From: Candidatus Rokuibacteriota bacterium
GTDB taxonomy: Bacteria > Methylomirabilota > Methylomirabilia > Rokubacteriales > CSP1-6
Direction of reading: 5' to 3'
Assembly: GCA_016200085.1 (NCBI GenBank)
Contig: JACQFL010000018.1
Span: 48,006 to 112,005, forward strand
Length of the DNA stretch: 64,000 nucleotides
Position numbers and translations under genes: made by a program. This document shows positions 43,246 through 64,000 of the stretch, piece after piece; positions within the stretch are counted from its first letter, which is position 1, and every line of letters starts with the position of its first letter. Under the pieces are notes generated by a model. The model searched no databases and was not told where the DNA came from. It saw only the letters and a list, made by a program, of their open reading frames with translations.

Positions 43246-43890
43246 TCAGGGACGCCACGGGCGATCGAGGCCGCGATGCTGCACGGCCTCGGCGACGTGC
43301 TCGGCGCGGATCGCCGCCGCCCCCTCGAGGTCGGCGATGGTGCGCGCGACCTTCAGGACGCGGTCGTGCGCGCGCGCCGACAGGCCGAGGCGCGTCATGG
43401 CGGCGGCGAGCAGGCGCGCGGCCAGCGCGTCGAGCCCGCACGCGCGGCGCACCAGGCGCGGCGACATCTCCGCGTTCGTCCGCCCCGTGCGGAAGCGCTC
43501 GCGCTGCCGCTCGCGCGCGGCGACCACCCGCGCGCGCACCGCGCGCGACGGCTCGCCCGCGGGCAGCTGCAGGTCCGCGTGGGCGACCGCCGGCATCTCG
43601 ACGTGCAGGTCGATGCGGTCCAGCAGGGGTCGTGAGAGGCGGCCGAGGTAGCGAGCCCGCTCCGCCGGCGTGCACACGCACCGGTCGAGCGAGGGACAGC
43701 CCCGACGGCACGGGTTGGCGGCGCCGACGAGCTGGAAGCGCGCGGGAAAGTGTCCGACACCGCCCGCGCGCGCGATGCTCACCCGGCCGTCCTCGAGCGG
43801 CTGCCGGAGCGACTCGAGCACGTGCTGGGCGAACTCCGGCATCTCGTCGAGGAGCGAGTTACCTCGATACGGTGCAACGGCTGGCCTCGG
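43246..43890 (-). pseudogene. comM: 5'-truncated comM (Mg-chelatase-like / YifB family) remnant
   Basis: encodes only the C-terminal about 210 aa (..LLDEMPEFAQHVLESLRQPLEDGRVSIARAG..FPARFQLVGAANPC..). The AAA+ N-domain including Walker A is missing; homology stops about 30 bp from the stop of the next gene. Confidence 0.7.
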
Positions 43891-43922
43891 TTGCTCTTGA
43901 GTTTGCGGTCGCGGACGCTCGG

Positions 43923-45329
43923 TCAGGAAGGTGACGTCCAGGCGACCGTCCCCGCCGCGAGCGTCGAGCCGCAGAAGGAGCAGCCCGGGCGACGCGCGGC
44001 ACCCCAGTCAACGAGGGTGCCCCGCACGCCATCGAGCTTTCGGAACCCGCGCTGGATCCCCGGTTCGCCGTCGAGCTGGACCGCGCTGTCGCCGAGCCCG
44101 GACCCGGCGAAGCCGGAGAGGAGCTGGAGCACCTCCGTCACCGCCTGGCTCGCGACGACGCCGTTCAGGCTCACCACCTGCGCCTCGCCCTCCCGATTCT
44201 CGAAATAGCTGCGGTTGGGTCCGCGGAGCTCGGTCGCGAGCTTCTCCTTGGAGAGGAACCCGCAGCACCACATGCAGAAGTCGCCGGGGATGAGCGTGAG
44301 CACGTTCCCGCCGATCGCCACCCGCGGGCCATGGCGCTCGGGCTTCTCGATCGCCCGAATATTCACGCCCACGTCCACATACGGGATGAGGAAGCGCCAG
44401 GCGAGTTCCTGGAGGTCTGCCCGCGCGTGCAGGTTGTCGACGCATCCGACGATGACGTCGCCCCGCGTGAGCGCCGCGAGCGCCTTGGGTCCAGGAACGC
44501 GCTCGTTGACCATCTCGCATCGCGTCCCCATGCCGATCCGCCGCACGGCCCGTCGGATCACTACGGTCTTCTTCCTCCGGAGCCATACGTCGAGCCGCGT
44601 GAGGCCCACGAGCCGGTGACGGTCCGTCGGCGCGACGCGGTCGGCGTCGACGAGAATGATCTCGCCCACGCCGAGATGCGCGAGCTGCTGGGCGACGTGG
44701 CTCCCGCCGCCGCCGAGGCCTACGACTGCGACACGCGAGTCGGCGAGCGTCCGCTGGCCGTCCTCGCGAACAATGAGCCTCTGCCGCGCGAAGTCCATGG
44801 CGCCGTGGATCGGTTGCCGCGCTCCGCCCGCTGGCCAGTCGAGGATGGAGGCGCCGAGCCAGCGCACATCGAGCGCCACCTCCTTGGCCGCCGCCGACGC
44901 GCCCGGGAAGACGATGAGGCCGGTGGCGTCGGTGCGCGAGAGGACGACGGAGCCGTGCGGGCGCGCGGGCACGCGCGCCGCGAACATTGGCAGGAGCCGG
45001 GCAGCGCTGCCGCGGTCGTCGCCGGAGATACCTGGGGGACCGTCGTGCGCGTGCGCATGGAAGACGACGAGACCGAGCCCCTCGTCCACCGCGGTCTCGA
45101 GCGCGGGGATCATGGCGGACCCGCGCCAGGCCCCGCCGTGTCCGGGAGCGTGGAAATATGCCTCCTCGGGGAGTGTGAAGATCCTGCGGAGGAGGAGCAC
45201 CTCGCGGCCGGCGAGCGTGGACGAGGAGACGAGTCCGAGCGCCACGTACTCATGGCGGCCAGGCCGGAAGACGGTCTCCATGAGCAATTCCCCGAGACCG
45301 AGCGGGATGCGGAGCCCGAGTTCAGTCAT
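43923..45329 (-). CDS. JAB/MPN (JAMM-like) peptidase - ThiF/E1-like adenylyltransferase fusion protein
   Basis: 468 aa. N-terminus has EYVALGLV..FHAHAHDGPPGISGDD (JAMM-like E..HxH..S..D). C-terminus has the E1 Rossmann motif RVAVVGLGGGGSHVAQQLAHLGVGEIILVDAD plus Cys clusters CMWCCG / CSFCG. Confidence 0.7.
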   Translation of the reverse strand: MTELGLRIPLGLGELLMETVFRPGRHEYVALGLVSSSTLAGREVLLLRRIFTLPEEAYFHAPGHGGAWRGSAMIPALETAVDEGLGLVVFHAHAHDGPPGISGDDRGSAARLLPMFAARVPARPHGSVVLSRTDATGLIVFPGASAAAKEVALDVRWLGASILDWPAGGARQPIHGAMDFARQRLIVREDGQRTLADSRVAVVGLGGGGSHVAQQLAHLGVGEIILVDADRVAPTDRHRLVGLTRLDVWLRRKKTVVIRRAVRRIGMGTRCEMVNERVPGPKALAALTRGDVIVGCVDNLHARADLQELAWRFLIPYVDVGVNIRAIEKPERHGPRVAIGGNVLTLIPGDFCMWCCGFLSKEKLATELRGPNRSYFENREGEAQVVSLNGVVASQAVTEVLQLLSGFAGSGLGDSAVQLDGEPGIQRGFRKLDGVRGTLVDWGAARRPGCSFCGSTLAAGTVAWTSPS

Positions 45330-45684
45330 TTTGGGCGAACCGCTGACGCGCGGCCGTGACGAACCGGATGATGCTCTGGCCCTCCGCCCACGGGATGTTG
45401 AAGGAGAACTGCATCCACGACTCTCCGCCGACGATCTGAGTCGAGGTGCTTCGCGGGGCGCGGCCGTTCGCGAGGAGTTGCCCGGGCTGGACGTAGGGGA
45501 TCGGTTTCGGCTGGTCGGGATCGAAGACGATGAGCATGAGGGTCGTGGGAGGCCGGCAGCCCGGCGGGAGGTCGAGGTCGCTCACCCGGACGAGGGTGCG
45601 GGATCCTTCGCGCGCAGTCCTGACCCCGTCCCCGTAGACGGAGACGAGGTCCCGGATGGCCTGGTCGATGGTCTCAGCCCTCAT
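45322..45684 (-). CDS. small hypothetical protein, candidate E2-like (UBC-fold) component
   Basis: 120 aa with a single Cys (..PPGCRPP..), translationally coupled between the Ubl-like gene and the JAB-E1 gene; assignment by context only. Confidence 0.35.
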   Translation of the reverse strand: MRAETIDQAIRDLVSVYGDGVRTAREGSRTLVRVSDLDLPPGCRPPTTLMLIVFDPDQPKPIPYVQPGQLLANGRAPRSTSTQIVGGESWMQFSFNIPWAEGQSIIRFVTAARQRFAQND

Positions 45685-45961
45685 CGGACTCGCTCACCGT
45701 GCCCGTGGGCAGCGCGACGAAGTGATCGCCGTCCTTGATCTCGACCGGATCGTCGGGGCCGATGTTGCCGCCCGAGGGCTTCCCGTGGACGAGCCGCGTG
45801 AGATCGTCGGTGAGCGGCGCGCCCGCCCCCTCCCGGATCGCTCGGCCGGTGACCGGGGTGGTGTTGAACTGGACGTGCTTGTTCCGGCCGTCCACCTCGA
45901 CCACGATGTTGATGACGCGGTGCTTCACTTCCGGAGCTGCTGTCGTCTCGTGCGCTTCCAT
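45674..45961 (-). CDS. multi-ubiquitin (Mub)-type beta-grasp ubiquitin-like protein
   Basis: 95 aa; ..INIVVEVDGRNKHVQF..VHGKPSGGNIGPDDPVEIKDGDHFVALPTG.. resembles the Mub domain of E1/E2/JAB operons; C-terminal residue is Gly. Confidence 0.5.
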   Translation of the reverse strand: MEAHETTAAPEVKHRVINIVVEVDGRNKHVQFNTTPVTGRAIREGAGAPLTDDLTRLVHGKPSGGNIGPDDPVEIKDGDHFVALPTGTVSESDEG

Positions 45962-46089
45962 TTTGTCCTCCGAAGCCGGGCTCCATACTGTCGGGCCGCG
46001 ATGCTCCTACTTTCCCAGTGCCCGATTTCCGATCGGACCGGACATGCCGACGAAATTGTCCGGGAGGCTCCGGAGCCGGGCATATATAG

Positions 46090-46746
46090 GTGGGACGGAC
46101 GACCAAGCCCGGGAGGGGGAGGGAGTCGGGGCTGGAGAAGCAACCACGGAGGGTGCCAGCGGACCGCGCGGCGACCCCGGACGAGGTCCGGGCCGCCTTG
46201 GACGGCTTGGGCGAGGCCGATCTCGTCCGGCTCGGGAAGTCCGCCCGCTACCGGATACGGGGACTTGGCCGCAAGGCCGGGGGGCGGGACCATGACGATC
46301 TCCTCGGAGAGGCGGTTGCGGACACCCTCGACCCGACGAAGCGCAGATGGAACAAGGACGTAAGCTTCGTCCGGCACCTGATAGGTGCCATGCGGAGCAT
46401 CTCGAGCCACTGGCGCGAGCAGTTCGACCCCGACGAACCGCTCTTGGAAGCGCAGCTCGTCCACACGACCGAGGAAGGAGAACTCCTCAGCCCGATCGAT
46501 TTGGTCGGCTCGGGCGCACCAGGCGCCCAGCGTATCCTTGAGGCCAAAGAAGAGGTCGAGCGCATCGAGAAGGCGGTCGCCGATGACAAGGTCGTGCACG
46601 ACATCCTGGGCGGCCTGCGCGCCGAAATGTCGCCCGACGAAATCCGCGAGGCCTTGGGGCTTTCCGTCACCGAGTACGAGACAGCGATGAAGCGGTTCCG
46701 GAGGCACGTGCGACCGACCGCGGCGCAGGGAGGAAGCGATGCCTGA
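46090..46746 (+). CDS. ECF-type sigma-70 family protein (regions 2 and 4)
   Basis: region-2-like ..DHDDLLGEAVADTL..FVRHLIGAMRSISSHWREQ.. and region-4 HTH ..ILGGLRAEMSPDEIREALGLSVTEYETAMKRFRR; the true start may be downstream of the first ATG. Confidence 0.55.
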   Translation: MGRTTKPGRGRESGLEKQPRRVPADRAATPDEVRAALDGLGEADLVRLGKSARYRIRGLGRKAGGRDHDDLLGEAVADTLDPTKRRWNKDVSFVRHLIGAMRSISSHWREQFDPDEPLLEAQLVHTTEEGELLSPIDLVGSGAPGAQRILEAKEEVERIEKAVADDKVVHDILGGLRAEMSPDEIREALGLSVTEYETAMKRFRRHVRPTAAQGGSDA

Positions 46747-47188
46747 GAAGCCGCGAGACTACGAAGCCGAGCTTCGCGCCATCATGGATGCACTCGCCGA
46801 GTCCGTGGCCGAGGCGTCGGACGAGGACCTCCTTGCGGAAGCGCGCGAGGCGGGTGAGGACCCTCGCCAGACGGCCGCCCGGGTACGGGACGTCTTGAAG
46901 CGTGCCGCGAAGGATTATGAACAGAGACACCTTCGCGCGGCTGAGAAGGCACACGAAGAGCAAGTCAGATCAATTCGCATGCGTCCCTACGTCCTGCCGG
47001 ACACCCCCGAGGGCCGCCGAAAGCTCTTCACACTCGTCGTGACCCGGAAGCCCAAGCTGCGGCAAGCACTCCTCACCCTTCAGAACCGTGAATTCAAAAA
47101 TCTCACGGATGCGGACATCCAAAGCTGCCTCGAGCATCTGGGAGCGCTCGGGGTGCTCCGCGAGTTCGAGGAGCCGGAGGAAGAGTAG
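46739..47188 (+). CDS. hypothetical protein (possible anti-sigma / adaptor)
   Basis: 149-aa acidic helical protein overlapping the sigma gene stop (ATGCCTGA). Confidence 0.4.
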   Translation: MPEKPRDYEAELRAIMDALAESVAEASDEDLLAEAREAGEDPRQTAARVRDVLKRAAKDYEQRHLRAAEKAHEEQVRSIRMRPYVLPDTPEGRRKLFTLVVTRKPKLRQALLTLQNREFKNLTDADIQSCLEHLGALGVLREFEEPEEE

Positions 47189-47189
47189 C

Positions 47190-47987
47190 GTGTCTTCCTC
47201 TTACAGGGCGCCACACACCGTCCTCGAGGAACTCGGCATTCGCGAGCCCGAGGACATCAAGATCGAGGCGATCGCCGAGTACTGCGGCGCGACGATCCTC
47301 TACGAAGCTCTTGAGGGCACTGAGGCAAGGATCTTAGGCTACGGAGACCGTGCGATCATCACCGTGAATGTCGCGGCTCCCCTTGGCCGACGGCGCTTCT
47401 CAGGCGCTCACGAGCTTGGCCATTGGATGTGCGACCGGGGAAAGATCGCGTTTGCATGCACCGACCGCGTGTTCACACGTGAATGGTCGGACGATAACCC
47501 CGAGCGCCGAGCCAATCAGTACGCCGCTGAACTCCTGCTTCCGCAGAGGATGTTCTCGGCTCACGCGAAGAACCGGGAGATCACCTTCGCCGCGGCCCGC
47601 GACCTCGCGGAGGTCTTCAAGACGAGCCTTACCGCGACGGCGATTCGGCTCGTAGAGTTTGGCTCCTTTCCGGCTGTGCTCGTTTGCAGCGATCGAGACC
47701 GTCGGCGGTGGTTCAAGCGCGGCCCCGACGTGCCAGACGTGCTATGGCCCCACGATAGAGTGAGCCCGCGGACGGTGGCGTACGACGTCCTCCACGGTAA
47801 GGCGCTTCCGTCAGGGCCCGTTGACGTCTGTGCGGACGGATGGTTCGGCCATCACGAGGCCCATCGGTATGCCATACGAGAAGATTCCGTACGCATCACC
47901 GACGATTATGTCTTGACGCTTCTTTGGTGGAAGGACGAACGCCAGCTCCTCGATCTCGAGGATGACGACAATGATGATGAGCAGTAA
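47190..47987 (+). CDS. ImmA/IrrE-family metallo-endopeptidase
   Basis: GTG start after a GGAGGAAGAG Shine-Dalgarno; HEXXH motif ..GAHELGHWM.. in a DUF955-type context. Confidence 0.7.
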   Translation: MSSSYRAPHTVLEELGIREPEDIKIEAIAEYCGATILYEALEGTEARILGYGDRAIITVNVAAPLGRRRFSGAHELGHWMCDRGKIAFACTDRVFTREWSDDNPERRANQYAAELLLPQRMFSAHAKNREITFAAARDLAEVFKTSLTATAIRLVEFGSFPAVLVCSDRDRRRWFKRGPDVPDVLWPHDRVSPRTVAYDVLHGKALPSGPVDVCADGWFGHHEAHRYAIREDSVRITDDYVLTLLWWKDERQLLDLEDDDNDDEQ

Positions 47988-48077
47988 GGGGGCTTCAAGG
48001 GGCGAAGATCACGAGAAGTATCCGCTGGACTTCGAGGGCGGCGCGGCGGCCCGTAGGCGTCACGTGCCCGAGCAGCC

Positions 48078-49987: not shown

Positions 49988-49996
49988 AGCGACGTC

Positions 49997-50296
49997 ATGC
50001 CGCACCGGCTGACCGTATGTAATTCTGGACATTCCCGAGCCGCCGCCGTGGAACTCTCCCGTGTAGAGAGGTGGAGTCCCATGCATGGGCGGCTAGGCGC
50101 TTTCCAGGAGCTTGAAAAGTTCGTGAGGGCTCATCGCGAGTGCGGATCGCTGATTGGCGACGCTAGCCGTCCGGGAGCGGACGGCTACTTGCTCTGGGTC
50201 GAGTGCTCGTGCGGGATCCGGTTCGAGCGCTGGGTGACCCCCGAAGCCGCGGAGTATGATCTCCTCCGGTCGCGGCTCTTGAGCTCCCAGAACTGA
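49997..50296 (+). CDS. hypothetical small protein
   Basis: 99-aa ORF, possibly starting at the internal Met. Confidence 0.3.
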   Translation: MPHRLTVCNSGHSRAAAVELSRVERWSPMHGRLGAFQELEKFVRAHRECGSLIGDASRPGADGYLLWVECSCGIRFERWVTPEAAEYDLLRSRLLSSQN

Positions 50297-50350
50297 GGTC
50301 GGGGCCGTCACTCGGGAGGGCCGAGTCGGCTCCCCGTCGCCTCCTTTCTC

Positions 50351-50873
50351 ATGCGGAGGCCACCATGCGCCCCGAGACTATCCAGGTTCGGCCGCGAGGA
50401 TCTCTACGAGGAGATCTGGTCAGAGCCGCTCATCAAGGTCGCCCAAAACTACGGCATCAGCGGTACTGGCCTCTCGAAAATCTGCCGGAAGGCGGGAATC
50501 CCGCTCCCGCCCGTAGGCTACTGGCAGCAGCTCCAGTACGGCTACAAACCCGCACGTCCCCCGTTCCCGCCGTTGCGCAATGGAGCCAACATCGGTGGTC
50601 ACGATCGAGAAGCACCCGCCCAAGCCCAAGCACAGCTAGGAAGTGGAGTCCCAGCTCGCACGCGAAGAGGACGAGAAGAACCGCCGCTACGTCAACAATG
50701 TAGGCAAGGTCTCGATGAAGTTTGCCGGGGGATCATTAAATGCGCTCGCTCCGAACTCTCGCCAAATCGGAGCCCTTGCGTTCCACTCGAGCGCAAACGC
50801 TGCGTTTACCCCAACGAAGGCCTTCATTATTTCTGATGCAAGCAGTAGTCGTAGTGCTACCCGTGCAAAATAG
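50351..50873 (+). pseudogene. disrupted hypothetical gene (frameshift plus in-frame TAG)
   Basis: N-terminal part ..REDLYEEIWSEPLIKVAQNYGISGTGLSKICRKAGIPLPPVGYWQQLQYGYKP.. turns into nonsense. A different frame reads ..EPTSVVTIEKHPPKPKHS*EVESQLAREEDEKNRRYVNNVGKVSMKF.. Confidence 0.35.
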
Positions 50874-51669: not shown

Positions 51670-51900
51670 CTAGCCGGAGAAAACGAGGCCCTTAAGGCGC
51701 TCCGTGAGTTGTGCGATGCCCGCTTCACCAACGTAAGAGACGCCTTGGCCCCGAGCGACCTTCGCTGAGAAACGAAAGGGCGTCAGCTTATCGATGTAGG
51801 GCCGGAAATCTGCCTCAGTGACTCTCAGCCCGCGCTTGTCAGAAACCCTGATACCTCGTCGGCGCATATCTCGGTGGCGTCCCGAGTGGTGTGGAAATAG
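51670..51900 (-). pseudogene. C-terminal gene fragment, possibly the 3' end of the IS-disrupted DGQHR gene
   Basis: ..GIRVSDKRGLRVTEADFRPYIDKLTPFRFSAKVARGQGVSYVGEAGIAQLTERLKGLVFSG* is the protein-like tail of the 544-aa track ORF, which is otherwise antisense to the transposase. Confidence 0.3.
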
Positions 51901-53300
51901 AGAAATGGCGCATTCTTCCGGTGGGAAGTCCCACCACCAACCGGCCGTCCGGCAAGACGGCCGCCGGAGGAATGCGCTATGGCGAAGCGTATCAGGAAGT
52001 CGGAGCGGCTGCCTGAAGATCGGCCGGCCGCGCTGGGCGAGTTGATTCATGCCCAGGTCCGGGTCGCGATCGAGACGGCCGTGCACGAAGAGCTGGCGAT
52101 CGCGCTCGGGGCCGGGCGCTACGAGCGCCACGACGGGCGGCGCGGCTACCGCAACGGCCTCAAGACGCGCACCCTGACGGGCCCGACCGGGCCGCTGGCC
52201 CTCACGCTGCCCCGCGCCACGCTGGGGGCGCCGAGCCGCGAATGGTGCTCGACGATCGTGCCGCGCTATCAGCGCCGGATGCGCGAGGTGAACGAGACGG
52301 TGATCGCGACGTACTTGGCCGGGGGGAACCAGCGGCGGATCCGCGGCGCGCTGCAGCCGCTGCTCAAGGCGGCGCCGCTTTCCAAGAGCGCGGTCTCCCG
52401 GATCGTCGCCACGCTGAAAGATGGGCTGACGGCCTGGACCGCGCGCTCGCTCACCGAGGTTGACCTCGTCTACCTCTATCTCGACGCCGTGTGCGTGCGG
52501 GTGCGCAGCGCGGGCAAGGTCGCGAGCGTGCCCGTGCTGACGGCCGTGGCCGTGCTCGCCGACGGCCGCAAGGAGTTGCTCGCGCTGGAGCTGTGCGGCA
52601 GCGAATCGGGCGACGCGTGGCGGGACTTCGTCGCGGACTTGCAGGCCCGCGGGCTCCGCGCGCCGCTCCTGGCGATCATCGACGGCAATCCGGGCCTGCG
52701 CCTGGCCCTGAGCCGGACGTGGCCGGCGACGGCCGTGCAGCGTTGCGCCGTCCACAAGCTCCGCAACCTCGAGCGTAAGGCGCCCAAGCACGCGCTCGAC
52801 GAGCTCCGCGAGGACTTTCATCGCATCGTCTATGCGGCGTCCGCCGACGCGGGCCGCGCGGCGTACACGACCTTCGAACGCAAGTGGGCGAAGCGCTGTC
52901 CCGGCGTCGGGCGCAGCCTCCACGAGGGCGGCGCGGAGTTGCTGACCTTTTTCACCTTTCCGAAGGCGCAGTGGAAGACGCTGCGCACCACGAACGTGAT
53001 CGAACGGCTCAATGAGGAATTCCGCCGGCGCGTGAAGACGCAGGGCTCGCTGCCGACCGAGGATGCCGCGCTGATCCTGCTCTTCAGCCTGGTCGCCAGC
53101 GGGCAGATCAAGCTGCGGAAGATCGATGGGCACGCGACGATCGCGACCGTCATCAGCAAGCGGCTGCGGCCCGCGGCGTGACCCCCCCGAGCCGGGCTCT
53201 TGCGCTTTGCGTCCAGGGACGAGAGAATCGCGATCGCTCAGAGCCTCGGAGAGCGACGATCGCGAGCGAGGCAATACCCTGATATCCCCCTCGCCGCGAT
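51880..53300 (+). mobile_element. IS256-family insertion sequence (boundaries approximate)
   Basis: single transposase gene flanked by about 100 bp of non-coding ends; it sits between a 5' gene body and a protein-like 3' fragment on the minus strand. Confidence 0.7.
51979..53181 (+). CDS. IS256-family (Mutator-like) transposase
   Basis: 400 aa; ..DLVYLYLDAVCVRVR..LLAIIDGNPGLRLAL..AVQRCAVHKLRNL..NVIERLNEEFRRR.. matches the IS256 DDE transposase pattern. Confidence 0.9.
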   Translation: MAKRIRKSERLPEDRPAALGELIHAQVRVAIETAVHEELAIALGAGRYERHDGRRGYRNGLKTRTLTGPTGPLALTLPRATLGAPSREWCSTIVPRYQRRMREVNETVIATYLAGGNQRRIRGALQPLLKAAPLSKSAVSRIVATLKDGLTAWTARSLTEVDLVYLYLDAVCVRVRSAGKVASVPVLTAVAVLADGRKELLALELCGSESGDAWRDFVADLQARGLRAPLLAIIDGNPGLRLALSRTWPATAVQRCAVHKLRNLERKAPKHALDELREDFHRIVYAASADAGRAAYTTFERKWAKRCPGVGRSLHEGGAELLTFFTFPKAQWKTLRTTNVIERLNEEFRRRVKTQGSLPTEDAALILLFSLVASGQIKLRKIDGHATIATVISKRLRPAA

Positions 53301-54251
53301 TCACGACGGTGTCGGTCGCGACCGCCGATCGATGGAATGCCGGAGGATCGCCTCTCGATTTTCCACATCAAGCGGGACGCCACCCATATCTCCGATCATG
53401 TCTTCAAACAGATTGAGAGCCGCGGAGACGCCCACGTACTTACAGAGGAGAAACTCCTTATTGTTCCACTCGCGCGGGTAGGCTGCCGCAAGAACCTTGA
53501 AGTATGTCATCAGCACTCTGAGCTGAAGCGCTTCCTCAAAGAAGTCCGCATCCTCGGTGTGGAAAATGTGCCCTCGTTTCAAGAGCTTCTTGAGCGCCGT
53601 CATGAACGACGAAAGGCTGATGATGCGACCGGCGCCACCGACCATCCCAATCTTGTCGTGCCACGGAGAGTCGCGGTCCTCGTTCAACGAACTGACGAGG
53701 TAGTAAGCCCGCCGGTCCTCGAACTCCACCCATTCCGTTTGGCGGAGCATTGGTATCAGGTCATACACAAGGGAAGGATTGATCTTCCTTTGAGTGCCGT
53801 TGATCGTCCGGAACACAAGAGCTTTGAACTCATCAGGCAGGTCTATAAAGGCCGAAACGACAAGTGGAAGGTCGACGGAGCCGGAGTACTCATCATCGAA
53901 CGACCAGAGGCGGTGCTGTCCGTCCAAGACAAACGCCTCTGCACTCGGTCGATTAGGTATATGGATATAGTTGTCTCTGAAATACGCGTCGGCGCTTAGG
54001 GACACAATAATTGCGTTGGGAAGCAGAGGAGGACCGGCGGTTCGGCCCTGCAGATAGTCGCCGATTTCGCGTAGGCGGCTTGCGTTGAGGCCTCGTTGAA
54101 TTCCCTGTCGATTTTCTCGGGTTCTCTCGCTCGTATACGAAACGCTCAAGAGAGTCTTCGCCGTGAGTGAGAAGACGTAGAAGGTGAAATCTCCTTGGCT
54201 AATCGGTAACGCTGGAACTGGTGGTAGAAATCCGTTGGTCTTGTTAGGCAT
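53301..54251 (-). CDS. DGQHR-domain protein (DndB-like paralog), probably 3'-disrupted by the IS
   Basis: 316 aa with ..AFVLDGQHRLWSF..; the ORF ends a few codons into the IS-proximal sequence. Confidence 0.7.
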   Translation of the reverse strand: MPNKTNGFLPPVPALPISQGDFTFYVFSLTAKTLLSVSYTSERTRENRQGIQRGLNASRLREIGDYLQGRTAGPPLLPNAIIVSLSADAYFRDNYIHIPNRPSAEAFVLDGQHRLWSFDDEYSGSVDLPLVVSAFIDLPDEFKALVFRTINGTQRKINPSLVYDLIPMLRQTEWVEFEDRRAYYLVSSLNEDRDSPWHDKIGMVGGAGRIISLSSFMTALKKLLKRGHIFHTEDADFFEEALQLRVLMTYFKVLAAAYPREWNNKEFLLCKYVGVSAALNLFEDMIGDMGGVPLDVENREAILRHSIDRRSRPTPS

Positions 54252-56068: not shown

Positions 56069-56479
56069 CTATCGGACGCCCGCGACGACGAGTTCGGCGA
56101 ACTTCAGAAGCCGGTCGCCCGGTTCTTGCGCAACCCGCTGCTCGATAAGCGAAATCCCTCCGTTCGCGTATTCCTCGGCGATCGTGAGGAGCTCTCCTTG
56201 GTCGAGGAGCACTTTCACGTCACCGGTTGCGGCAATCGCAAGCGCACGTAGGACAGGGATATCGTCCTGGGGCGAGAAGATTGACCAGGCAAAGACCTGC
56301 TGCCGGCGCTCAAGCGGCACGCGCTTGTTGAGCTGAAAGCCGAGGCAGGCGGCCACAAGGAAGAGGTCTTTCATAGTCTTGAACGGGGACTCCTCGCCCG
56401 ACGTGAGTGTCCGATAGAATTCGTGCGACGCAGCATCGACCGAAACCCGATCTCGCCGGACCTCGGCGGTCTCTTTCAT
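56069..56479 (-). CDS. small hypothetical protein (DndE-sized, follows the DndD-like gene)
   Basis: 136 aa; 4-nt ATGA overlap with the DndD-like gene, mirroring the dndD-dndE arrangement; similarity to DndE not established. Confidence 0.35.
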   Translation of the reverse strand: MKETAEVRRDRVSVDAASHEFYRTLTSGEESPFKTMKDLFLVAACLGFQLNKRVPLERRQQVFAWSIFSPQDDIPVLRALAIAATGDVKVLLDQGELLTIAEEYANGGISLIEQRVAQEPGDRLLKFAELVVAGVR

Positions 56480-58422
56480 CGCTTCACCTCGGCGATCGTC
56501 GTGCAGCTCGTCGTCTGGTCGAACTCGAGACGGTATTCCGCCCCGATCCGGTGCTGGAGGTTCTTGCGGGCGCCCTCGCGAAGCTCCTCATCCGTCACAA
56601 AGAGGACGAGCTGGTCGGCAAGTTCAGGGATGTGTTCCGTGATGTTCGCGCGGTGCTCGCCGGAGAGCCGCCCGAAGGGCGTATCCATCACAAGGGGCGC
56701 TTCCTTGCCGGAGACCTTCGCCATCGCGGTGATAAAGGCGAGGCTCAAGACCTGCCGCTCGCCGGCCGAGAGATCGGGTCGCGCGGGAAGGTTGTACCGG
56801 TCGATGACATCGAGGCTGTAGTCGTCGGTGAGCCGGATCTGCTGGAAGTGGGCTGTCTTCCAGATGAGCGTCTGGAAGATCTTTTGGGCTCGCTCCCGGA
56901 TCTGCTGGCGCATCTGCGAGGCGAAGATCTCGGCGATCTTCGTGATCGCGTCGGCTGAGTGCTGGGCGAGGACGAAGCGCCGTGTGATCGCCTGCGCCTT
57001 CTTCTCGCTTTTCTTTGCGGCTTCGATTTGCTTGCCTAGACGTTCGAGGTCGAGGTTGATCTGTTCGGTCCTGCCCTTCAGTCGGTGGATGTCCATCTCG
57101 ATCTGCTGCAAGCTGAACGCATATTCAGAGCGCTTTTTTTCGAGCTCTGCGACCTCTTCAAGATTGAAGGCGCTCAATTTCCGAGAGATCTCATCGAGCT
57201 GGGCATCGAGCTTCGCAATGTGCCCGTCGAGAGCGACCTTTTTCTCGAGAAGCGCTCGGAGCTGCCCGGGGATTTCGGCAGCCCGCCGGAGGGCGTTCCT
57301 CACGTCGCCGCCGGACTGGAGTACCAGGTCTTCAAGGTCCGAGGGGAAGGTTTTCTTCAGAAGCGTCGTGAGGTGCTCATGCTCCGGCGAGCGCGCGCTG
57401 ATCGGCCGCCCGCAAATGCATACCATCGCCTCGAGAAGGTCCTGGAGAAACTGCTGTCGGATGCCGGGCGGGATCTCCCCCTTCTCGCGCTTCTCGTCGA
57501 GGATGGCGAGCGCCTTCTGGAGCGCATCGGTCGCAAAGACCGCAGCGGCGCGATTCACGGCGTCGCGAACTGACTGACGGAGCTCGTCGCGACGCTGCTC
57601 TGCGTGCTGCAGCTCACTCGTGAGGGCAGCTCGCTGGGTCGTGAAATCTTTTACGGCGGCGATCTCCGACAAGCGCTGGTCGAGGCTTTCGAGCTGCTTT
57701 TTCGCAGCGCGATGCTCGGCCTGTTTCAGTTCGAGGTCTTTATCGATCTTGTCGAGTTCCTGCCGGCGAGCCTCATCAGCTTCGAGAAGGTTCTGGAGTT
57801 CTCCAGTCGAAGAGCTTTTCAGTTCTGTCCGGAAATCACGAGCCACGGCGTCGAGATGGGTCTTTGAGCGGTCGAGAATCTCGATATCGAGGACGTTGCG
57901 AACGGCATGCTTCACTTCGTCTTCGTGGTCTGGCCGCGCGAACTCATCGATCTTCTCGCCATCGAAGAAGAAGTATGTGCGGACATTCTCGGGCAGGATC
58001 GCGTTCAGGGTGCCGGTGGGGTTATCGACCGGCCTCGACTGCCCGTCGGGCCGGATTCGCATGAGCATGAACGTGGACTGGTCGTTGTATCGGAGCTTCG
58101 CCTCGTCCTTCAGGCGGACGCCGGAGACCTCACGTCGTGCGAGGAACCGCTCGCCGTTGTGGACGAAGGCGAGGGTCACCCGCGCCGTCACCGAGTCCCC
58201 GGGCTTTGCTTCGCTGATTGCGCGCTTGCTCATGAGCTGATCAGGCGCAAGCACCGCCTCCCCATAAAGGCACCAAGAAAGCGACGTGAAGAGTGCGGTC
58301 TTTCCTGCACCATTCTGCCCGTTGAACACGGTGATGTTCTTTGCCGGGTCGCGGGAAAAGAGGACGGTCTGGCTTGCGTAGTACTGGCGGAAGTTCTCGA
58401 TACTCAATCGGTCAAGCTTCAT
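56476..58422 (-). CDS. DndD-like SMC/ABC-type ATPase (paralog)
   Basis: starts MKLDRLSIENFRQY (GGAGG Shine-Dalgarno 8 nt upstream); Walker A FNGQNGAGKT; ..YFFFDGEKIDEF.. shared with dndD; long coiled coil; C-terminal signature ..LSAGERQVLSLAF..LVMDTPFGRLS. Confidence 0.8.
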   Translation of the reverse strand: MKLDRLSIENFRQYYASQTVLFSRDPAKNITVFNGQNGAGKTALFTSLSWCLYGEAVLAPDQLMSKRAISEAKPGDSVTARVTLAFVHNGERFLARREVSGVRLKDEAKLRYNDQSTFMLMRIRPDGQSRPVDNPTGTLNAILPENVRTYFFFDGEKIDEFARPDHEDEVKHAVRNVLDIEILDRSKTHLDAVARDFRTELKSSSTGELQNLLEADEARRQELDKIDKDLELKQAEHRAAKKQLESLDQRLSEIAAVKDFTTQRAALTSELQHAEQRRDELRQSVRDAVNRAAAVFATDALQKALAILDEKREKGEIPPGIRQQFLQDLLEAMVCICGRPISARSPEHEHLTTLLKKTFPSDLEDLVLQSGGDVRNALRRAAEIPGQLRALLEKKVALDGHIAKLDAQLDEISRKLSAFNLEEVAELEKKRSEYAFSLQQIEMDIHRLKGRTEQINLDLERLGKQIEAAKKSEKKAQAITRRFVLAQHSADAITKIAEIFASQMRQQIRERAQKIFQTLIWKTAHFQQIRLTDDYSLDVIDRYNLPARPDLSAGERQVLSLAFITAMAKVSGKEAPLVMDTPFGRLSGEHRANITEHIPELADQLVLFVTDEELREGARKNLQHRIGAEYRLEFDQTTSCTTIAEVKR

Positions 58423-58579
58423 CCCGTGCCTCCTCGTCGAGGATCTCGCGAAGCGCCTCCTTGAACCGTGGACGCTCGAGAGTGATGTTGCTCTGCTCGA
58501 ATTCAAGGACGCGCGAGACGGTGCGCTGGACATCCTCTGGGAACTGCTTGAAGAGCTCGAGTAAGACCTGTCTCACCAT
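58412..58579 (-). CDS. unannotated 55-aa small ORF
   Basis: MVRQVLLELFKQFPEDVQRTVSRVLEFEQSNITLERPRFKEALREILDEEARDEA; GAGGA Shine-Dalgarno 5 nt upstream; ATG 6 nt after the helicase stop; its stop overlaps the DndD-like ATG (ATGAAGCTTGA); missing from the ORF track. Confidence 0.45.
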   Translation of the reverse strand: MVRQVLLELFKQFPEDVQRTVSRVLEFEQSNITLERPRFKEALREILDEEARDEA

Positions 58580-58587
58580 GGCAATCC

Positions 58588-60657
58588 TCAGAAGTCGAGT
58601 ACGTGGAGGCGCTCGGCGAGATGCCAGATGGCCTCGGTCGCCGTGAAGCGGTTCGTCGCGGTATCGGCGAACTCGCGGAAGCGTCTGAGCTCGCGGCGAA
58701 GGATTGTTTGCTCCGACGGCAAGATGTCGTCGCTCATCGCTCCGGTCGGAGGCACCGCGAGGAAATCGTGGATCTCGGCCGCCTCCTTGCCCGGCGCCCG
58801 CCGAAGGATACGGCCACGACGCTGGATGAACTCGCGAGGATTCCCGCTGCTCGCAAGGATATAGGCCACGCGCGTGGGCGGCACGTCGACGCCTTCGTCG
58901 AGGCAGCGGATGGCGACGAGACCCTGGTAGATGCCCCGCTCGAAGGCGGTAAGGAGTGCTTCGCGCTCGGGAATCGACTCCTCGACGGTGAACTTGGAGA
59001 CGACGAGTCCAAGGTCGTTCCCCAGAAGGTCCACGACATCGTTGATCTGGTCAGGCGAGCTGTAGAAGAGGGAGAGCGTGACCGGCGAGTGGCGCTCCAC
59101 CGTCGCGCGAAGCTCGGGTAGCTTCTGCCTTGCGCAGTTCAGAAGGTTGGCGCGGTTCCGTAGGAGGGTCGCGAGGAGCTCGTCGTCGTCAACGCTTCCG
59201 CCTTTTGAGAAGAGCTGAGCGATTCTCTGGGTGAGGCGCTGATATTCCGCATACTCGTCGTCCTCAAGCTCCACGACGTGCGGGTGATAGCTATACGGGA
59301 CGAGGAAACCTCCCGCGATCGCGTCCTTAAGCGTGACCGTGATGAGAGTCGGCCCGAAGTATTTCGTAAGAAAGCTTGTCCCTTCTTCGTCGAACCACCG
59401 CGTCGGAGTGGCGCTGAGGCCCAGCCTGGCGTCGTAGAAATTCTCGAGAGCTTCACGCAGCTTCGGTGCGCCGAGGTGATGAACCTCGTCGGCGACGAGT
59501 ACCCGGCCAACTCGCGCATGGCCCACGATCGTCCGAAAGCGTTCAAGGGCTCCGGTGGCGTGAGTAGCGATCGCACAGACGAACGAACGTGCGCCGGCAT
59601 TCGCCTCCCCGATCTGGTTCGCGAGTGTCGAATCCCAACGGGGGGCCTCGCCATGACAGAGGATCGGATCGAATCCGAAACGCCGCGCCTCGGCCGCCCA
59701 TTGGGTGACGAGGTGCGAGAAGGGACAAAGGATCACGACCACGAAGGACGGCCGTTCCTTCGCGTAGTCCACGAGCGCGGCGAGGGCGCTCACGGTCTTC
59801 CCCGTACCGGTCGCCATTTCGAAGAACCCACGCGCGCCATGCTCAAGGAACGCCTTCACGGCGTCGCGCTGGAAATCCCGAAGCGCGAGATCGTCCGGGA
59901 TGTAGAGCCGCTGCCGGGGAAAGGGGACCGTGAGCGCCGGCGGCGCGCCGGTCGCTTCAGGGTCACGGGTCGGCCGAGCAGAGGGCTTGAACCGGAGGAG
60001 TGCCTGCCTGGCCGCCTCGGGGAAGTCCACGACGATCAGGCGCCGCGTGTCGTTTTTCCAGAGTCGATCGAACGCTTCAATCTTCGGTGGGATCCGATCC
60101 TGCGGATCGTCCCACGACCAGAAAACCTCGATCGATTCGAAGTTCGAAACGAGCCCGCCGACGGTCTCGTTCGGGGAGCCGATAAATGCGACGGCGTTCG
60201 CCTCGCGATCCGAAAAGATCCCGACCTTCTCGTGATAGATACCCATGACGTCATGCGGCGGCGCGGACATGGCGAGCTTGATCTCGAGCCTTTTCTCCGA
60301 GATCAACCAGGCAAGACATCCGAGCCGGTCTTCCTCCACCGAAGAGGAGATGAACTCGAACTGGCGGAGCAGGGCTTTCGTGATGATGTCGTCGCGCGCG
60401 GCGTACCCGCGGCGGATGGCTTCGGCATCCTCGGGCGCGAGGACCGGGCTTGCGACGAGATACATCCGGCCGTCGCCTCGAATAAACGCTGCGAGTCCAC
60501 GCGCCGCGACCGAGAGGCCGCCGCTCGTGAAGTAGCCGACGGCGCGGCGATACTCCGCGCTCACCGAAAGGCAGGGCACATAGAAGTCGTCGACGATGCT
60601 GCCCGCATCGCTTCGGTACCAAGTCCGGAGCGAGAGCTCGCGCAGGGCGCTGGTCAT
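58588..60657 (-). CDS. PLD-family nuclease - SF2 (DEAD/DEAH) helicase fusion protein
   Basis: 689 aa. N-terminal HKD motif ..HEKVGIF..FIGSPNET... Helicase motifs: Walker A MATGTGKT, DEVH (LVADEVHHL), motif VI QRRGRILR. Confidence 0.8.
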   Translation of the reverse strand: MTSALRELSLRTWYRSDAGSIVDDFYVPCLSVSAEYRRAVGYFTSGGLSVAARGLAAFIRGDGRMYLVASPVLAPEDAEAIRRGYAARDDIITKALLRQFEFISSSVEEDRLGCLAWLISEKRLEIKLAMSAPPHDVMGIYHEKVGIFSDREANAVAFIGSPNETVGGLVSNFESIEVFWSWDDPQDRIPPKIEAFDRLWKNDTRRLIVVDFPEAARQALLRFKPSARPTRDPEATGAPPALTVPFPRQRLYIPDDLALRDFQRDAVKAFLEHGARGFFEMATGTGKTVSALAALVDYAKERPSFVVVILCPFSHLVTQWAAEARRFGFDPILCHGEAPRWDSTLANQIGEANAGARSFVCAIATHATGALERFRTIVGHARVGRVLVADEVHHLGAPKLREALENFYDARLGLSATPTRWFDEEGTSFLTKYFGPTLITVTLKDAIAGGFLVPYSYHPHVVELEDDEYAEYQRLTQRIAQLFSKGGSVDDDELLATLLRNRANLLNCARQKLPELRATVERHSPVTLSLFYSSPDQINDVVDLLGNDLGLVVSKFTVEESIPEREALLTAFERGIYQGLVAIRCLDEGVDVPPTRVAYILASSGNPREFIQRRGRILRRAPGKEAAEIHDFLAVPPTGAMSDDILPSEQTILRRELRRFREFADTATNRFTATEAIWHLAERLHVLDF

Positions 60658-60719
60658 GGTGGAGTAGGGCGTCCCGCCATTACAGCGGGCGGGGTGAAAA
60701 TGTCAATAAAGTTGATATC

Positions 60720-60754
60720 TTAAGCTTCCATTCCAAAATATTAAGCTTCCTTCC
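60720..60754. promoter_or_regulatory. paired TTAAGCTTCC direct repeats (AAGCTT palindromes) in the AT-rich divergent promoter region
   Basis: TTAAGCTTCCAT and TTAAGCTTCCTT spaced 23 bp apart inside the AT-rich 60.66-60.81 kb intergenic region. Confidence 0.35.
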
Positions 60755-60812
60755 CGTCGAACTTGACTTCCAAAGCCCGTCCGCATACGCTTTCCCGCAA
60801 AGCGGGCAAGTC

Positions 60813-61949
60813 GTGAGAGGTGGAGGGACTGTGTCCGAGAAGGCGGTGCGGGATCTTCCGGAGTCCTTCTCATACGTGTTCGCCGCGCTGCGGGGCGTCC
60901 AGGCGGGCGGCGAGTACTACGTGGCCATGTGCCCGCTGAAGCTCATCCCGAAGATCTTTCTTTTCGATGAAGATGAGATTCCTCCTGACCTTCGCGCGCA
61001 GCGGGCCCTGAACCGCGCCCGGATCCCCGAGATCGCGCAATACATCGTCGAGAACCCAAAGGAGTACGTCTTCTCCTCGATAACCGCCTCGATCGACGGG
61101 CAAGTGCGGTTCGAGCCGCTCGCGGAGAGCGGCCCTCGAAGCAATCTTGGCCAGATCGTCATCCCCATGACCGCGAAGTTCATCATCAACGACGGCCAGC
61201 ACCGACGGGCGGCGATCGAAGAGGCGCTCAAGGAAAGGCCGGAGCTAGGCGACGAGACTATCTCCGTCGTCTTTTTTCTCGACAGCGGCCTCGCGCGCAG
61301 CCAGCAGATGTTCGCTGACCTTAATACGCACGCCATTCGCCCGACGAAGTCTCTCGGCATCCTCTACGATCTTCGCGACCCACAGTCACAGCTCGCGAGG
61401 AAGCTCATCAGCACCGTGCCGGTATTTAAGGGGCTCACCGAGACGGAGAAGACCACCATCTCGAACCGGTCGATCAAGCTCTTCACGTTGAGCGGCATTT
61501 ATCAGGGCACGAGGGCGCTTCTCAATAAACCGAAACAAGCCAGGGTGTCGCCACAGGAGGAAGCGCTCGCGATCGATTTCTGGACTGAGGTCGGTAGGAA
61601 CGTGCCCGAGTGGACGATGGCAAAAGAGAGAAAGGTGAGCGCCGCCGAGCTCCGTCGCGACTTCATCCACGCTCACGGCATTGCGCTCCACGCGTTAGGG
61701 ATTGTCGGTGCGGCGCTTCTTGCTGCGGAGCCCAAGCGCTGGAAGGACCGCCTGAGGGCGCTCGCGAAAGTCGATTGGTCACGTTCGAACACAAAGCTAT
61801 GGGAAGGACGCGCCATGATCGGCGGGCGCGTGAGCAAGGCTCACAACAACGTGATCCTCACGGCCGCTGTGTTGAAACGCGCGCTCGACTTGCCGCTCTC
61901 GCCTGAGGAACAGCGAGTCGAGACCCACCTGGGGAAGCGGGGAGGCTAG
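60813..61949 (+). CDS. dndB: DNA phosphorothioation-associated protein DndB
   Basis: 378 aa with ..KFIINDGQHRRAAIEEAL..; an alternative GTG start 6 codons in follows a GGAGGG Shine-Dalgarno. Confidence 0.85.
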   Translation: MRGGGTVSEKAVRDLPESFSYVFAALRGVQAGGEYYVAMCPLKLIPKIFLFDEDEIPPDLRAQRALNRARIPEIAQYIVENPKEYVFSSITASIDGQVRFEPLAESGPRSNLGQIVIPMTAKFIINDGQHRRAAIEEALKERPELGDETISVVFFLDSGLARSQQMFADLNTHAIRPTKSLGILYDLRDPQSQLARKLISTVPVFKGLTETEKTTISNRSIKLFTLSGIYQGTRALLNKPKQARVSPQEEALAIDFWTEVGRNVPEWTMAKERKVSAAELRRDFIHAHGIALHALGIVGAALLAAEPKRWKDRLRALAKVDWSRSNTKLWEGRAMIGGRVSKAHNNVILTAAVLKRALDLPLSPEEQRVETHLGKRGG

Positions 61950-61952
61950 CGG

Positions 61953-63356
61953 ATGGAGAACAACGGAGTGCACGAGCTTGGACGAGACCGGCTCGACTCC
62001 AAGTACGAGGAGATACGTCAGGTTTACCTAAGCGATCGCCGCCCGTGGGTGATCGGCTATAGCGGCGGCAAAGACTCTACCACGGCTCTCCAACTTATCT
62101 GGTCCGCCCTCTCCAAACTTCCGAGCGCGGAGCTCACGAAGCCGGTTTACGTAATCGCCTCCGATACGCTCGTCGAGAGCCCGAAGATAGTCGACTATAT
62201 CGACGCCTCACTCGAACGGATGAACGGGGCGGCGGGGAGCGCGGGGCTTCCGCTCACTGCTCATAAGGTGAAGCCGACTCTCGAAAACACATTCTGGGTA
62301 AACCTCATCGGACGCGGCTACCCTGCTCCGTCGAAGCAGTTCAGGTGGTGCACTGACCGCCTCAAGATCGAGCCCGCAAACCGGTTCATTCTCGAAAAGG
62401 TCACCGAGCACGGAGAGGTCGTCGTCGTCCTTGGGGTCCGAAAGGGAGAGAGCGCGACGCGCGCGCAGGTTATGGCTCTCCACCGACTGAAGAACAGTCT
62501 CCTCTCTCGCCACTCACGGCTGCCGAATGCGTACGTATACACACCAGTCGAGGACTGGACGGTCGATGACGTCTGGACCTATCTCCTACAGGTCCCCTCG
62601 CCCTGGGGCAACAACAACCGTGACCTCGTGACGCTTTATCGAAATGCGCAGGCGGGAGAGTGTCCGCTCGTCGTGGATCAGGCTACGCCCTCCTGCGGCA
62701 ATAGCCGCTTCGGCTGCTGGGTCTGCACGGTGGTCACGAAGGACAAGTCCATGGAGGCGCTCATCGAGAACGGCGCGGAATGGCTCGAGCCGATGCTCGA
62801 GTACCGGGACCTGCTCTCGTCGACTCAGGACCCCGCGGTCAAAGGCCAGGTTCGGGAGTTCAAGCGGAGGAACGGCCAGGTTGCACTGAAGGACGATGGG
62901 AGCATCGTCTACGGCCCGTACAAACTTGCGGTCCGGAAGGACCTCCTCCGCCGGCTGCTTGAGCTGCAAAAACGAGTTCGCGCCGACGGTCCGAATCCGA
63001 AGGAACAACTCATTAGCCGCGAGGAGCTCGAACGTATCCGCGCTCTGTGGCGTCAGGAAGTTCAGGATTGGGAGGATTCGGTCCCAAAGATCTATCGCGA
63101 GGTGATGGGAGAGGATCTCGACTGGGTCGTTGACGAACAGCCTGGATTGTCCGGCGAGGATCGGGCGATTTTGGAGGGCATCTGCGAGCGCTACAACGTG
63201 CCGGCGGCCATGGTCGCGAAGCTTATCGATCTCGAACGTGAGTTCCACGGCATGAGTCGCCGTGCCGCGATCTATCAGCGCATTGCAGCTGTATTTGATG
63301 AAGATTGGAGATCGGAAGCCGAGGTGACGGTGCGCGAGAGGGACGCTGACCGGTGA
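61953..63356 (+). CDS. dndC: DNA phosphorothioation sulfurtransferase DndC (PAPS-reductase-like)
   Basis: 467 aa; PP-loop VIGYSGGKDSTTAL; Cys motifs ..ECPLVVDQATPSCGNSRFGCWVCT.. Confidence 0.9.
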   Translation: MENNGVHELGRDRLDSKYEEIRQVYLSDRRPWVIGYSGGKDSTTALQLIWSALSKLPSAELTKPVYVIASDTLVESPKIVDYIDASLERMNGAAGSAGLPLTAHKVKPTLENTFWVNLIGRGYPAPSKQFRWCTDRLKIEPANRFILEKVTEHGEVVVVLGVRKGESATRAQVMALHRLKNSLLSRHSRLPNAYVYTPVEDWTVDDVWTYLLQVPSPWGNNNRDLVTLYRNAQAGECPLVVDQATPSCGNSRFGCWVCTVVTKDKSMEALIENGAEWLEPMLEYRDLLSSTQDPAVKGQVREFKRRNGQVALKDDGSIVYGPYKLAVRKDLLRRLLELQKRVRADGPNPKEQLISREELERIRALWRQEVQDWEDSVPKIYREVMGEDLDWVVDEQPGLSGEDRAILEGICERYNVPAAMVAKLIDLEREFHGMSRRAAIYQRIAAVFDEDWRSEAEVTVRERDADR

Positions 63357-64000
63357 TTCTCACGCGGCTCACCGTCACGGACTTCGGCGTGTTCCGCGGC
63401 CGTCAAACTATCGCGCTCGCGCCGCGGCCCTCCCGTCCCGTCGTTCTTTTCGGCGGAAAAAACGGCGCGGGCAAGACGACGTTACTCGAAGCGGTCCGGC
63501 TGTGTCTCTACGGCTCGGGAGCGCTTGGCGCACGGACGTCCAAGGAGGCATATCTCGCGTATCTTGAGGGGCGGATTCACTCGAATCCGGACTTTCTTAT
63601 CCAGCCGATGTTCGCCTCCGTTTCGGTCGAGTTCCAGCATGCGGACGTCGGCGCCGTCCACACCTACACCGTTACACGTTCATGGGAGCGCAAAGGAGCC
63701 AACCGGATTGTCGAGCACCTTGATCTGGAGCGAGATGGCAAGGCGCTGGACGAACTGGCGGGGGAGCATTGGCAGGAATTCGTGCGGGAGCTTGTCCCTC
63801 CGGGGGTGGCCCAGCTCTTCTTCTTCGATGGGGAGAAGATTCAGCAGCTTGCGGAGGATAGCTCTGACCAGCGAACGCTCGCAGATGCGATCAAATCACT
63901 CCTCGGTCTAAACCTCGTCGAGCGGCTACAAACCGACCTCAATATTTTCCAGTCGCGGCTCACTCTCTCGGCAGAAGAGGGAGAGCCCGAGCGAGAACTC
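63353..64000 (+). CDS. dndD: DNA phosphorothioation ATPase DndD (5' portion; continues past the window)
   Basis: GTG start in a GTGA overlap with the dndC stop; VILTRLTVTDFGVFRG..LFGGKNGAGKTTLLEAVRLCLYG..LFFFDGEKIQQL..; absent from the track because it has no stop in the window. Confidence 0.8.
   Translation, partial: MILTRLTVTDFGVFRGRQTIALAPRPSRPVVLFGGKNGAGKTTLLEAVRLCLYGSGALGARTSKEAYLAYLEGRIHSNPDFLIQPMFASVSVEFQHADVGAVHTYTVTRSWERKGANRIVEHLDLERDGKALDELAGEHWQEFVRELVPPGVAQLFFFDGEKIQQLAEDSSDQRTLADAIKSLLGLNLVERLQTDLNIFQSRLTLSAEEGEPEREL

Follow-up and report, generated by a model that had tools for sequence, protein, structure and literature searches.

The 64,000-nucleotide stretch of DNA analyzed here (hereafter the window; positions 48,006 to 112,005 of contig JACQFL010000018.1) comes from a Candidatus Rokuibacteriota bacterium, and it carries a comM gene that is broken at the codons for the Walker B motif of the encoded helicase. 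Beyond the break lies a defense-gene island of at least 20.15 kb (43854..64000) that runs off the end of the window. This island is very likely an integrated mobile element that occupies a specific attachment (att) site. For this copy, a large serine recombinase (LSR) is the probable agent, and the window would then hold the attR side of an LSR-integrated element in comM. An earlier note on this DNA had suggested that an island was either inserted in comM or had replaced its 5′ half. Because the break falls at a precise recombination core and the terminal 30 nt of the island correspond to a conserved att arm, the comparisons described below indicate that the island is an insertion, and the replacement option is not favored.

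The comM 3′ fragment (43246..43853, reverse strand) comprises ∼200 of the ∼505 codons of the gene, beginning with the Leu-Asp-Glu of Walker B and ending at the stop codon. The open reading frame (ORF) at 43246-43842 on this strand encodes a protein that matches MBI3825576.1 exactly, and it covers positions 115-205 of the 207-position Pfam Mg_chelatase profile plus the entire Mg_chelatase_C. The ATG at 43842 is just the Met of the sequence ..DEMPEF in the comM fragment. The fragment is 75% identical to the intact comM of Candidatus Rokubacteria/Methylomirabilota metagenome-assembled genomes. A tblastn search of the 64-kb window found the ChlI/Walker A half nowhere. Thus, the claim of the earlier note that only the C-terminal part of comM is kept holds, whereas its statement that the AAA+ half is missing is correct for Walker A and ChlI but not for the Asp-Glu codons of Walker B, which the fragment retains.

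The chromosomal flank of the fragment (36260..43218) encodes DnaK, DnaJ, a MerR-family protein, Lon, an SLT transglycosylase, and a 144-aa protein. This gene order is kept in >15 Rokubacteria-type relatives, and loci L002-L022, L092, L093, and L098 match at 50-87% identity. Since the genes downstream from comM (144-aa gene, SLT, Lon, MerR, DnaJ, DnaK) match those of >15 relatives, the fragment is, as judged by gene order, the orthologous comM locus and not a paralog. More than twenty relatives have an intact comM at this locus. In all 80 relatives that were fetched, comM is either intact (∼505 codons) or cut only by the end of a contig, and none of the island genes is present in the comM neighborhood of any relative examined. 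Two ways in which the island hypothesis might have failed had been named beforehand, namely that the fragment is a decayed paralog, or that relatives share the gene order here with no island boundary. Neither is supported by these comparisons.

A further candidate, the window gene at 26683-27759 on the reverse strand, was considered as the relocated upstream neighbor of comM, as might result from an inversion. This gene is ∼50% identical to the gene directly upstream of comM in L002, L003, L005, L007, L082, and L083, whereas true orthologs are 70-87% identical, and it was rejected as a paralog. It includes a comM-like stretch, CTGTTCCTCGACGAG, at 27089-27108.

DNA homology to intact comM ends at position 43853, within GTG CTC TTC / CTC GAC GAG (VLF/LDE of Walker B, with the slash marking the break). 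The earlier note had placed the end of comM similarity at ∼43890, roughly 30 bp from the stop of the JAB-E1 gene. DNA alignments place the true end ∼40 bp further left, and they do not support the extension seen at the protein level. The gap to the stop codon of the JAB-E1 gene (BubCD, 43923) is 69 bp. The last 11 nt before the break, TCCTCGACGAG (43843..43853, reverse strand), form the att core, which in our alignment is identical in attB, attP-like, attL, and attR sequences. Because of this identity, strand exchange has to fall inside the core, and the dyad centre of an attP-like site (see below) predicts CT at 43851-43850 as the crossover dinucleotide. Adjoining the core on the element side is a 30-nt arm, CAGCCGTTGCACCGTATCGAGGTAACTCGC (43854..43883, reverse strand), which we call the P arm. 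The segment at 43843-43883 is organized as a hybrid att site, with the P arm and the core TCCTCGACGAG followed by the comM side, B′.

The missing partner halves of such genes were sought with a profile of comM N-terminal halves, which retrieved Rokubacteria-type fragments. Three of these (P0117, P0056, and P0047) end right after Walker B, and on all three contigs the adjacent sequence encodes the C-terminus of a coiled-coil protein on the opposite strand. Homologs of this protein and five further metagenome loci permitted its identification as an LSR. In total, eight loci (L082-L084 and L087-L091) have a comM 5′ fragment abutted in antisense orientation by the 3′ end of this gene. In L082, yjbQ-like genes come after the comM 5′ fragment. 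The gene for the LSR is full length in L087, L088, and L089 (∼600-660 aa, with Resolvase, Recombinase, and Zn_ribbon_recom domains), and it is partial in L082-L084. A 190-aa C-terminal fragment of the recombinase has no Pfam match. At the recombinase-side end, the motif GTGCTCCGTAGGGTGGCAACTCG is located beside the core in all eight loci, and the P′ arm reads approximately CGACGAGYTGCSACCCTACGG. All eight comM 5′ junctions recovered show the LSR gene, and no gene for a tyrosine recombinase (YRec), a helix-turn-helix (HTH) protein, or TnsF was found beside any of them. In these relatives, the LSR gene has genes for a relaxase (Replic_Relax), for a Rep protein, and for restriction-modification as neighbors, along with a weak match to a TrwB-type coupling protein. 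From this gene content, the related elements look like integrative mobilizable or conjugative elements.

When the arms on the LSR side are reverse-complemented, the window arm can be aligned to them with no gaps, and they share the pattern CCGTA-N4-GG-N-AACTCG. A weight matrix was built from the eight LSR-side arms and run along the two strands of the complete window (127,956 positions). The top score is at 43855-43877 on the reverse strand, flush with the comM boundary. This match is in inverted orientation, as expected for the partner arm of a dyad-symmetric attP. The force of this test lies in the position of the match and not in its score. Elsewhere in the window, neither a P′ arm within 7 mismatches nor a second P arm was detected, which agrees with the prediction of the earlier note that the other junction and any integrase lie outside the window.

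Other, independent comM 3′ junctions carry versions of the same arm. L092, which is from another Rokubacteria genome, agrees with the window at 27 of the 30 positions of the arm, and diverged versions are present in L093/L094 and L100. Conservation of the arm extends to L092, L098, and L100, but the elements diverge in sequence further in. L098 and L099 hold both arms joined through the core, as GGCGTTGCACCGTATCAAGGTGTCTCGCTC-CT-CGACGAGTTGCGACCCTACGGAGCACAACCGCC. In this joint the CCGTA...TACGG arms are equidistant from the CT centre, and this dyad symmetry is a property of the relatives rather than of the window's own element. The P arm of L098 matches the window arm at 24 of 27 nt, which is the sole such match in the window, and its P′ side shows few differences, when compared by eye, from the recombinase-side end of L082 over the ∼70 nt they share. 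Cobalamin biosynthesis genes are located upstream of the attP-like joint in L098. In a four-way alignment, the sequences conform exactly to attB (B+B′), attP (P+P′), attL (B+P′), and attR (P+B′) around the invariant TCCTCGACGAG. When B from the attL loci is joined to B′ from the window, the comM of relatives is rebuilt with an overlap that equals the 11-nt core, with the two halves coming from different genomes. No complete small element with both junctions was recovered among these loci, as the contigs of L092, L097, and L100 end at the junction or close to it, and the L093 stretch ends short of any far junction.

If an LSR integrated the element, then the following steps can be proposed. The recombinase would bind a dyad-symmetric attP of ∼60 bp on the excised circle, and attB would be the Walker B codons of comM, GTGCTCTTC-CT-CGACGAGCTGCC. 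After cleavage of both sites at the central dinucleotide, for which CT is predicted, subunit rotation and religation would produce attL and attR by conservative integration of the circular element. In this scheme, attL would consist of the comM 5′ half and the P′ arm, would abut the 3′ end of the recombinase gene, and would be located outside the window, whereas attR would be the P arm plus the comM 3′ half at 43843-43883. We infer that the recombinase gene and attL reside beyond base 64000. Integration would separate the Walker A and Walker B halves of the ComM helicase and should inactivate it, and a resident IS256 would have hit the element later. Loss of ComM lowers the recombination of heterologous transforming DNA (work summarized in PMC11472951). 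Because of this published effect, the element may be protected from curing by transformation. Any present mobility of the island, as well as its phenotypic effects, are matters that we infer.

Several observations weigh against assigning this island to an LSR. Over the 20 kb that are visible, there is neither an attL site nor a recombinase gene except for the IS256 transposase, and the LSR assignment depends on the similarity of the att arm to elements in other genomes. The crossover dinucleotide is likewise placed by symmetry alone. The weight matrix gives 10.8 bits at the junction and 10.2 bits at the next best position (22830), which is a small margin. The junction itself is confirmed only by a 3.2-kb Logan contig (SRR12113411) that possibly derives from the same reads as the assembly. 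The L098 locus is also anomalous, as its attP-like joint is followed ∼65 nt further on by comM 3′ sequence at a TTGATG/GACGAG junction. The same junction recurs (L098 9200-9360, L099, L093 ∼9950-10010, and L097 1-10). It could reflect a tandem insertion plus a deletion, a second crossover site, or a mis-assembly. Finally, L093/L094 encode a tyrosine integrase and a small resolvase at a distance of 1.5-3.4 kb from a junction with a related arm. In L093 these genes are located at 5000-8500 (399 aa and 235 aa, respectively), and the related arm is ACACCGTATCAAGGTGTG. A different recombinase may use similar ends, and judging from these loci, more than one recombinase type may act at comM.

This last observation is also one reason to consider a Tsy-type element, in which a YRec, a small HTH protein, and TnsF, encoded beside the comM 5′ half, inserted the island at Walker B. 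Tsy elements target a conserved 10-bp segment of comM Walker B (Faure et al. 2023, PMC10293859), and their geometry, with core genes next to comM 5′, cargo next to comM 3′, and a short cargo-side end (20-39 bp) that lacks canonical inverted repeats, fits the window. However, the window arm is an inverted counterpart to arms that adjoin an LSR gene in all eight loci, and an arm of the window type is joined to the LSR-side arm in L098. No TnsF or YRec gene is present beside any comM 5′ junction recovered. In addition, end2 of ZooTsy (...GAGAATCCCAGTC) is unlike the arm of the window, and ZooTsy has its attachment site in the 40 bp that precede the point of insertion, whereas in the window the 3′ fragment keeps the Asp-Glu codons. 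We therefore consider a Tsy-type origin to be unlikely.

Less probable still is that no integration took place, and that the comM 5′ half was lost by deletion, inversion, or rearrangement mediated by an insertion sequence (IS), or that the junction is an assembly chimera. Only a single junction is visible, the source genome is metagenome-assembled, an IS256 element is present inside the island, and odd secondary junctions exist at this locus, as in L098. However, the break coincides to the base with a core that is common to independent loci from different samples, and it is adjoined by a conserved att arm, which a random deletion or chimera would not yield. The junction is also present on the separately assembled 3.2-kb Logan contig. 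The weakest alternative, a Tn7-family transposon like Tn6022/AbaR (TnsABC, TniQ, TnsF), draws on the status of comM as the classic Tn6022/AbaR site, where TnsF recognizes the Walker B region (PMC10293859, PMC11014353), and on the richness of Tn7-like elements in defense cargo (PMC8649781), but it is already largely refuted and very improbable: The region at 43820-44320 contains neither a TGT terminus nor a repeat array of transposase-binding sites, what lies at the end is a conserved att arm of the LSR type, and the ORFs scanned from 43.9 to 64 kb (Pfam, PADLOC) include no TnsA, TnsB, TnsC, tniQ, or tnsF domain, even though the Tn6022 right end pairs with downstream comM in the primer design of PMC10293859 and, by analogy with Tn7, transposition genes are expected there.

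The evidence thus points to an LSR and not to the Tn7-like route of AbaR/Tn6022 that is suggested by the analogy with known comM hotspots. It is established that LSRs target comM and related magnesium chelatase genes, and that defense-rich comM islands exist in Acinetobacter. Of the predicted site-specific LSRs, 12.4% target genes annotated as magnesium chelatase or ATP-dependent protease (comM/YifB; Durrant et al. 2022, PMC10083194), and LSR targets are enriched for competence genes (PMC10083194). The island has the same target gene family as these elements, and the loci of its relatives similarly show a recombinase at one end and hybrid att sites. In contrast, its host belongs to the uncultured Rokubacteria/Methylomirabilota, the LSR of this copy is outside the view, and the LSR reading frame of the relatives crosses the att core. 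In another precedent, sr1WO recombinases of phage WO integrate into the magnesium chelatase gene of Wolbachia (PMC9203015). In both cases an LSR places, or in our case would place, an element into this gene and leaves gene fragments on both sides. However, the WO prophage is tailed and includes a eukaryotic association module, whereas the island has no phage structural genes among those seen.

The Tn6022/AbaR elements of Acinetobacter resemble the island in that they interrupt comM in its Mg-chelatase domain, with the Walker B sequence as guide, and in that accessory cargo is present. They differ in their use of a DDE transposase, a 5-bp duplication, and TGT/ACA ends, and no such end is found at 43.85-44.3 kb. 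Both Tn6022 and Tsy use the Walker B segment of comM via the TnsF selector (PMC10293859). Like the island, Tsy (ZooTsy, PMC10293859) has the comM Walker B target, cargo beside comM 3′, and a short cargo-side end. Its tyrosine recombinase with TnsF and its unrelated ends set it apart from the arms described here, which associate with serine recombinases.

Current understanding is not overturned by these findings, which describe a clear yet unexceptional example of integration at an established hotspot, here in an uncultured phylum. Their value is that a serine-recombinase family that targets comM, in a phylum for which all knowledge comes from metagenomes, now has a base-precise att set (attB, attL, attR, and the attP-like joint), with which island boundaries can be called in fragmented Rokubacteria assemblies. 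The case also brings a third class of recombinase to the Walker B codons, which were known before as the guide for Tn6022 and Tsy. This lends support to the view that mobile elements benefit when ComM-dependent transformation is disabled. Furthermore, the cargo provides a compact catalog of defense systems (Bub with CapP, AIPR/AbiU, and Dnd-Pbe) in an understudied phylum of soil and groundwater.

A strikingly large part of the database proteins nearest to this comM consists of fragments with one end at the Walker B core (P0117, P0056, P0047, P0148, P0180, P0184, and P0192 are examples). Because so many comM fragments begin or end there, this core appears to be a frequent point of integration and assembly breakage in Rokubacteria-type metagenomes. 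Several contigs also end exactly at this core.

The LSR reading frame has no stop codon before the core in any of the eight loci, and it continues through antisense comM for another 16-21 codons. A conserved tail, RRGA..LDTVQRLA.I.IEL, is specified by this frame on the P-arm side (43845-43934 of the window, forward strand) and is shared by the window, L092, L098, and L100. The tail differences between L092 and L098 are mostly at third codon positions. Two related hypotheses can be offered, although we hold them jointly to be tentative and somewhat doubtful. The first is that the LSR gene spans its own attP, in which case the C-terminus of the recombinase may differ between the excised and integrated states. 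If this is true, then integration swaps the LSR C-terminus for residues encoded by the host, which would constitute a built-in switch between the two states. The second is that the ∼10-bp Walker B segment may have independently evolved into a landing pad for three unrelated recombination chemistries, namely DDE (Tn7), tyrosine (Tsy), and serine (LSR).

Candidate cargo genes were chosen by GC content at third codon positions (GC3) and then scanned with Pfam, PADLOC, NCBIfam, and PDB. The gene content described by the earlier note (JAB-E1, ImmA-like protease, IS256, dnd, and PLD-helicase) was recovered in full by domain and PADLOC matches. Nearest to comM is a Bub-type operon for ubiquitin-like conjugation (43923..45961, reverse strand) that is composed of a 95-aa gene, a 120-aa gene, and BubCD. 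The BubCD gene (43923-45329) encodes a 468-aa JAB peptidase-E1 fusion with a ThiF domain. Its residues 16-401 align to 19-399 of Citrobacter BubCD (PDB 9ea4) with E=1e-22, which is a full-length match. The 95-aa ORF has a weak match to Multi_ubiq (E=0.015), the 120-aa ORF has no match in Pfam, PADLOC, NCBIfam, or PDB, and no ORF scanned matches DUF6527/BubE.

On the forward strand, divergent from this operon, a putative CapH gene (149 aa, no family match) precedes CapP, an M78/ImmA-like protease regulator (46739..47987 for the pair). CapP, at 47088-47987, matches PADLOC capP (2.5e-59) and Pfam Peptidase_M78. Bub operons are often paired with CapH and CapP and are located in mobile elements (PMC11601596). 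Compared with type I Bub operons (BubAB, BubCD, BubE; PMC11601596), the island has the same JAB-E1 BubCD and adjacent CapP, but two small separate ORFs replace BubAB and a DUF6527/BubE match is lacking. The operon may have a minimal or variant architecture, with these two ORFs in place of a BubAB fusion.

A UDG-superfamily protein is also encoded on the island, as is a small conserved backbone gene of 71 aa (50081..50296, forward strand) that is 65% identical in amino acid sequence to an L092 homolog by tblastx. The L092 homolog (L092 613-810) is ∼100 bp from attR, whereas the window copy is ∼6 kb from attR. This difference suggests, by comparison of these two loci, that an insertion at the end of the element brought in the Bub, CapP, and UDG-like genes as a block. 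An open frame in L092 hinted that the 71-aa gene might be a detached C-terminal domain of the recombinase. This possibility was rejected, as 464 homologs from a library of 1.8 billion proteins are nearly all stand-alone proteins of 60-120 aa.

A DpdB/DndB-like gene (53301-54251, reverse strand; PADLOC DpdB 7e-27) and an AIPR/AbiU-type abortive-infection gene (54340-56061, reverse strand; PADLOC AbiU 1e-38, Pfam AIPR) are followed by a Pbe restriction module (56069..60657, reverse strand). This module comprises dnd_assoc_4 (TIGR04062 4e-19), the SMC-like ATPase PbeC (PADLOC 1e-189), and PbeA, a PLD-plus-helicase protein (58588-60657, reverse strand; PADLOC 2e-231). On the forward strand are the phosphorothioate modification genes dndB, dndC, and dndD (60813..64000; Pfam/PADLOC DndB 1e-169, DndC 1.5e-201, and DndD 6e-81), the last of which is cut by the end of the window. 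The divergent dnd and pbe genes make up a pair that looks complete. DndB, DndC, DndD, PbeA, PbeC, and dnd_assoc_4 are strong matches to known Dnd-Pbe phosphorothioation defense, whereas dndE and any dndA would fall beyond the window. The AIPR/AbiU gene and the DpdB-like DndB paralog are directly beside the dnd/pbe genes. Cargo ORFs of 120, 218, 418, 322, and 161 aa have no match in any library scanned.

The foreign composition of the island, like its defense or mobile cargo, speaks for an integrated element. Overall, the window is ∼70% GC, with a drop from ∼0.72 to ∼0.60 from roughly 46 kb onward. The GC3 values are 0.90-0.97 for core genes, 0.88 for the Bub operon, and 0.62-0.83 for the rest of the island. 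The downstream shift in GC and GC3 that the earlier note described is real, but the GC drop starts ∼2 kb inside the island. One of its two AT-rich patches, near 50.7 kb, corresponds to 50.8-51.2 kb (GC 0.545), and a similar patch is present at 53.6-54.4 kb, whereas 60.7 kb is unremarkable at 400-bp resolution.

An IS256-family element is located at 51863..53394 on the forward strand. It has a transposase gene at 51979-53181 (Transposase_mut 3e-86) and 35-nt inverted repeats at 51863-51897 and 53360-53394, with no clear target duplication seen at its ends. At its 3′ end, the DpdB-like gene (53301-54251) overlaps with the right repeat. The element is probably a resident IS that was inserted after the island was acquired, and its GC3 of 0.92 is host-like.

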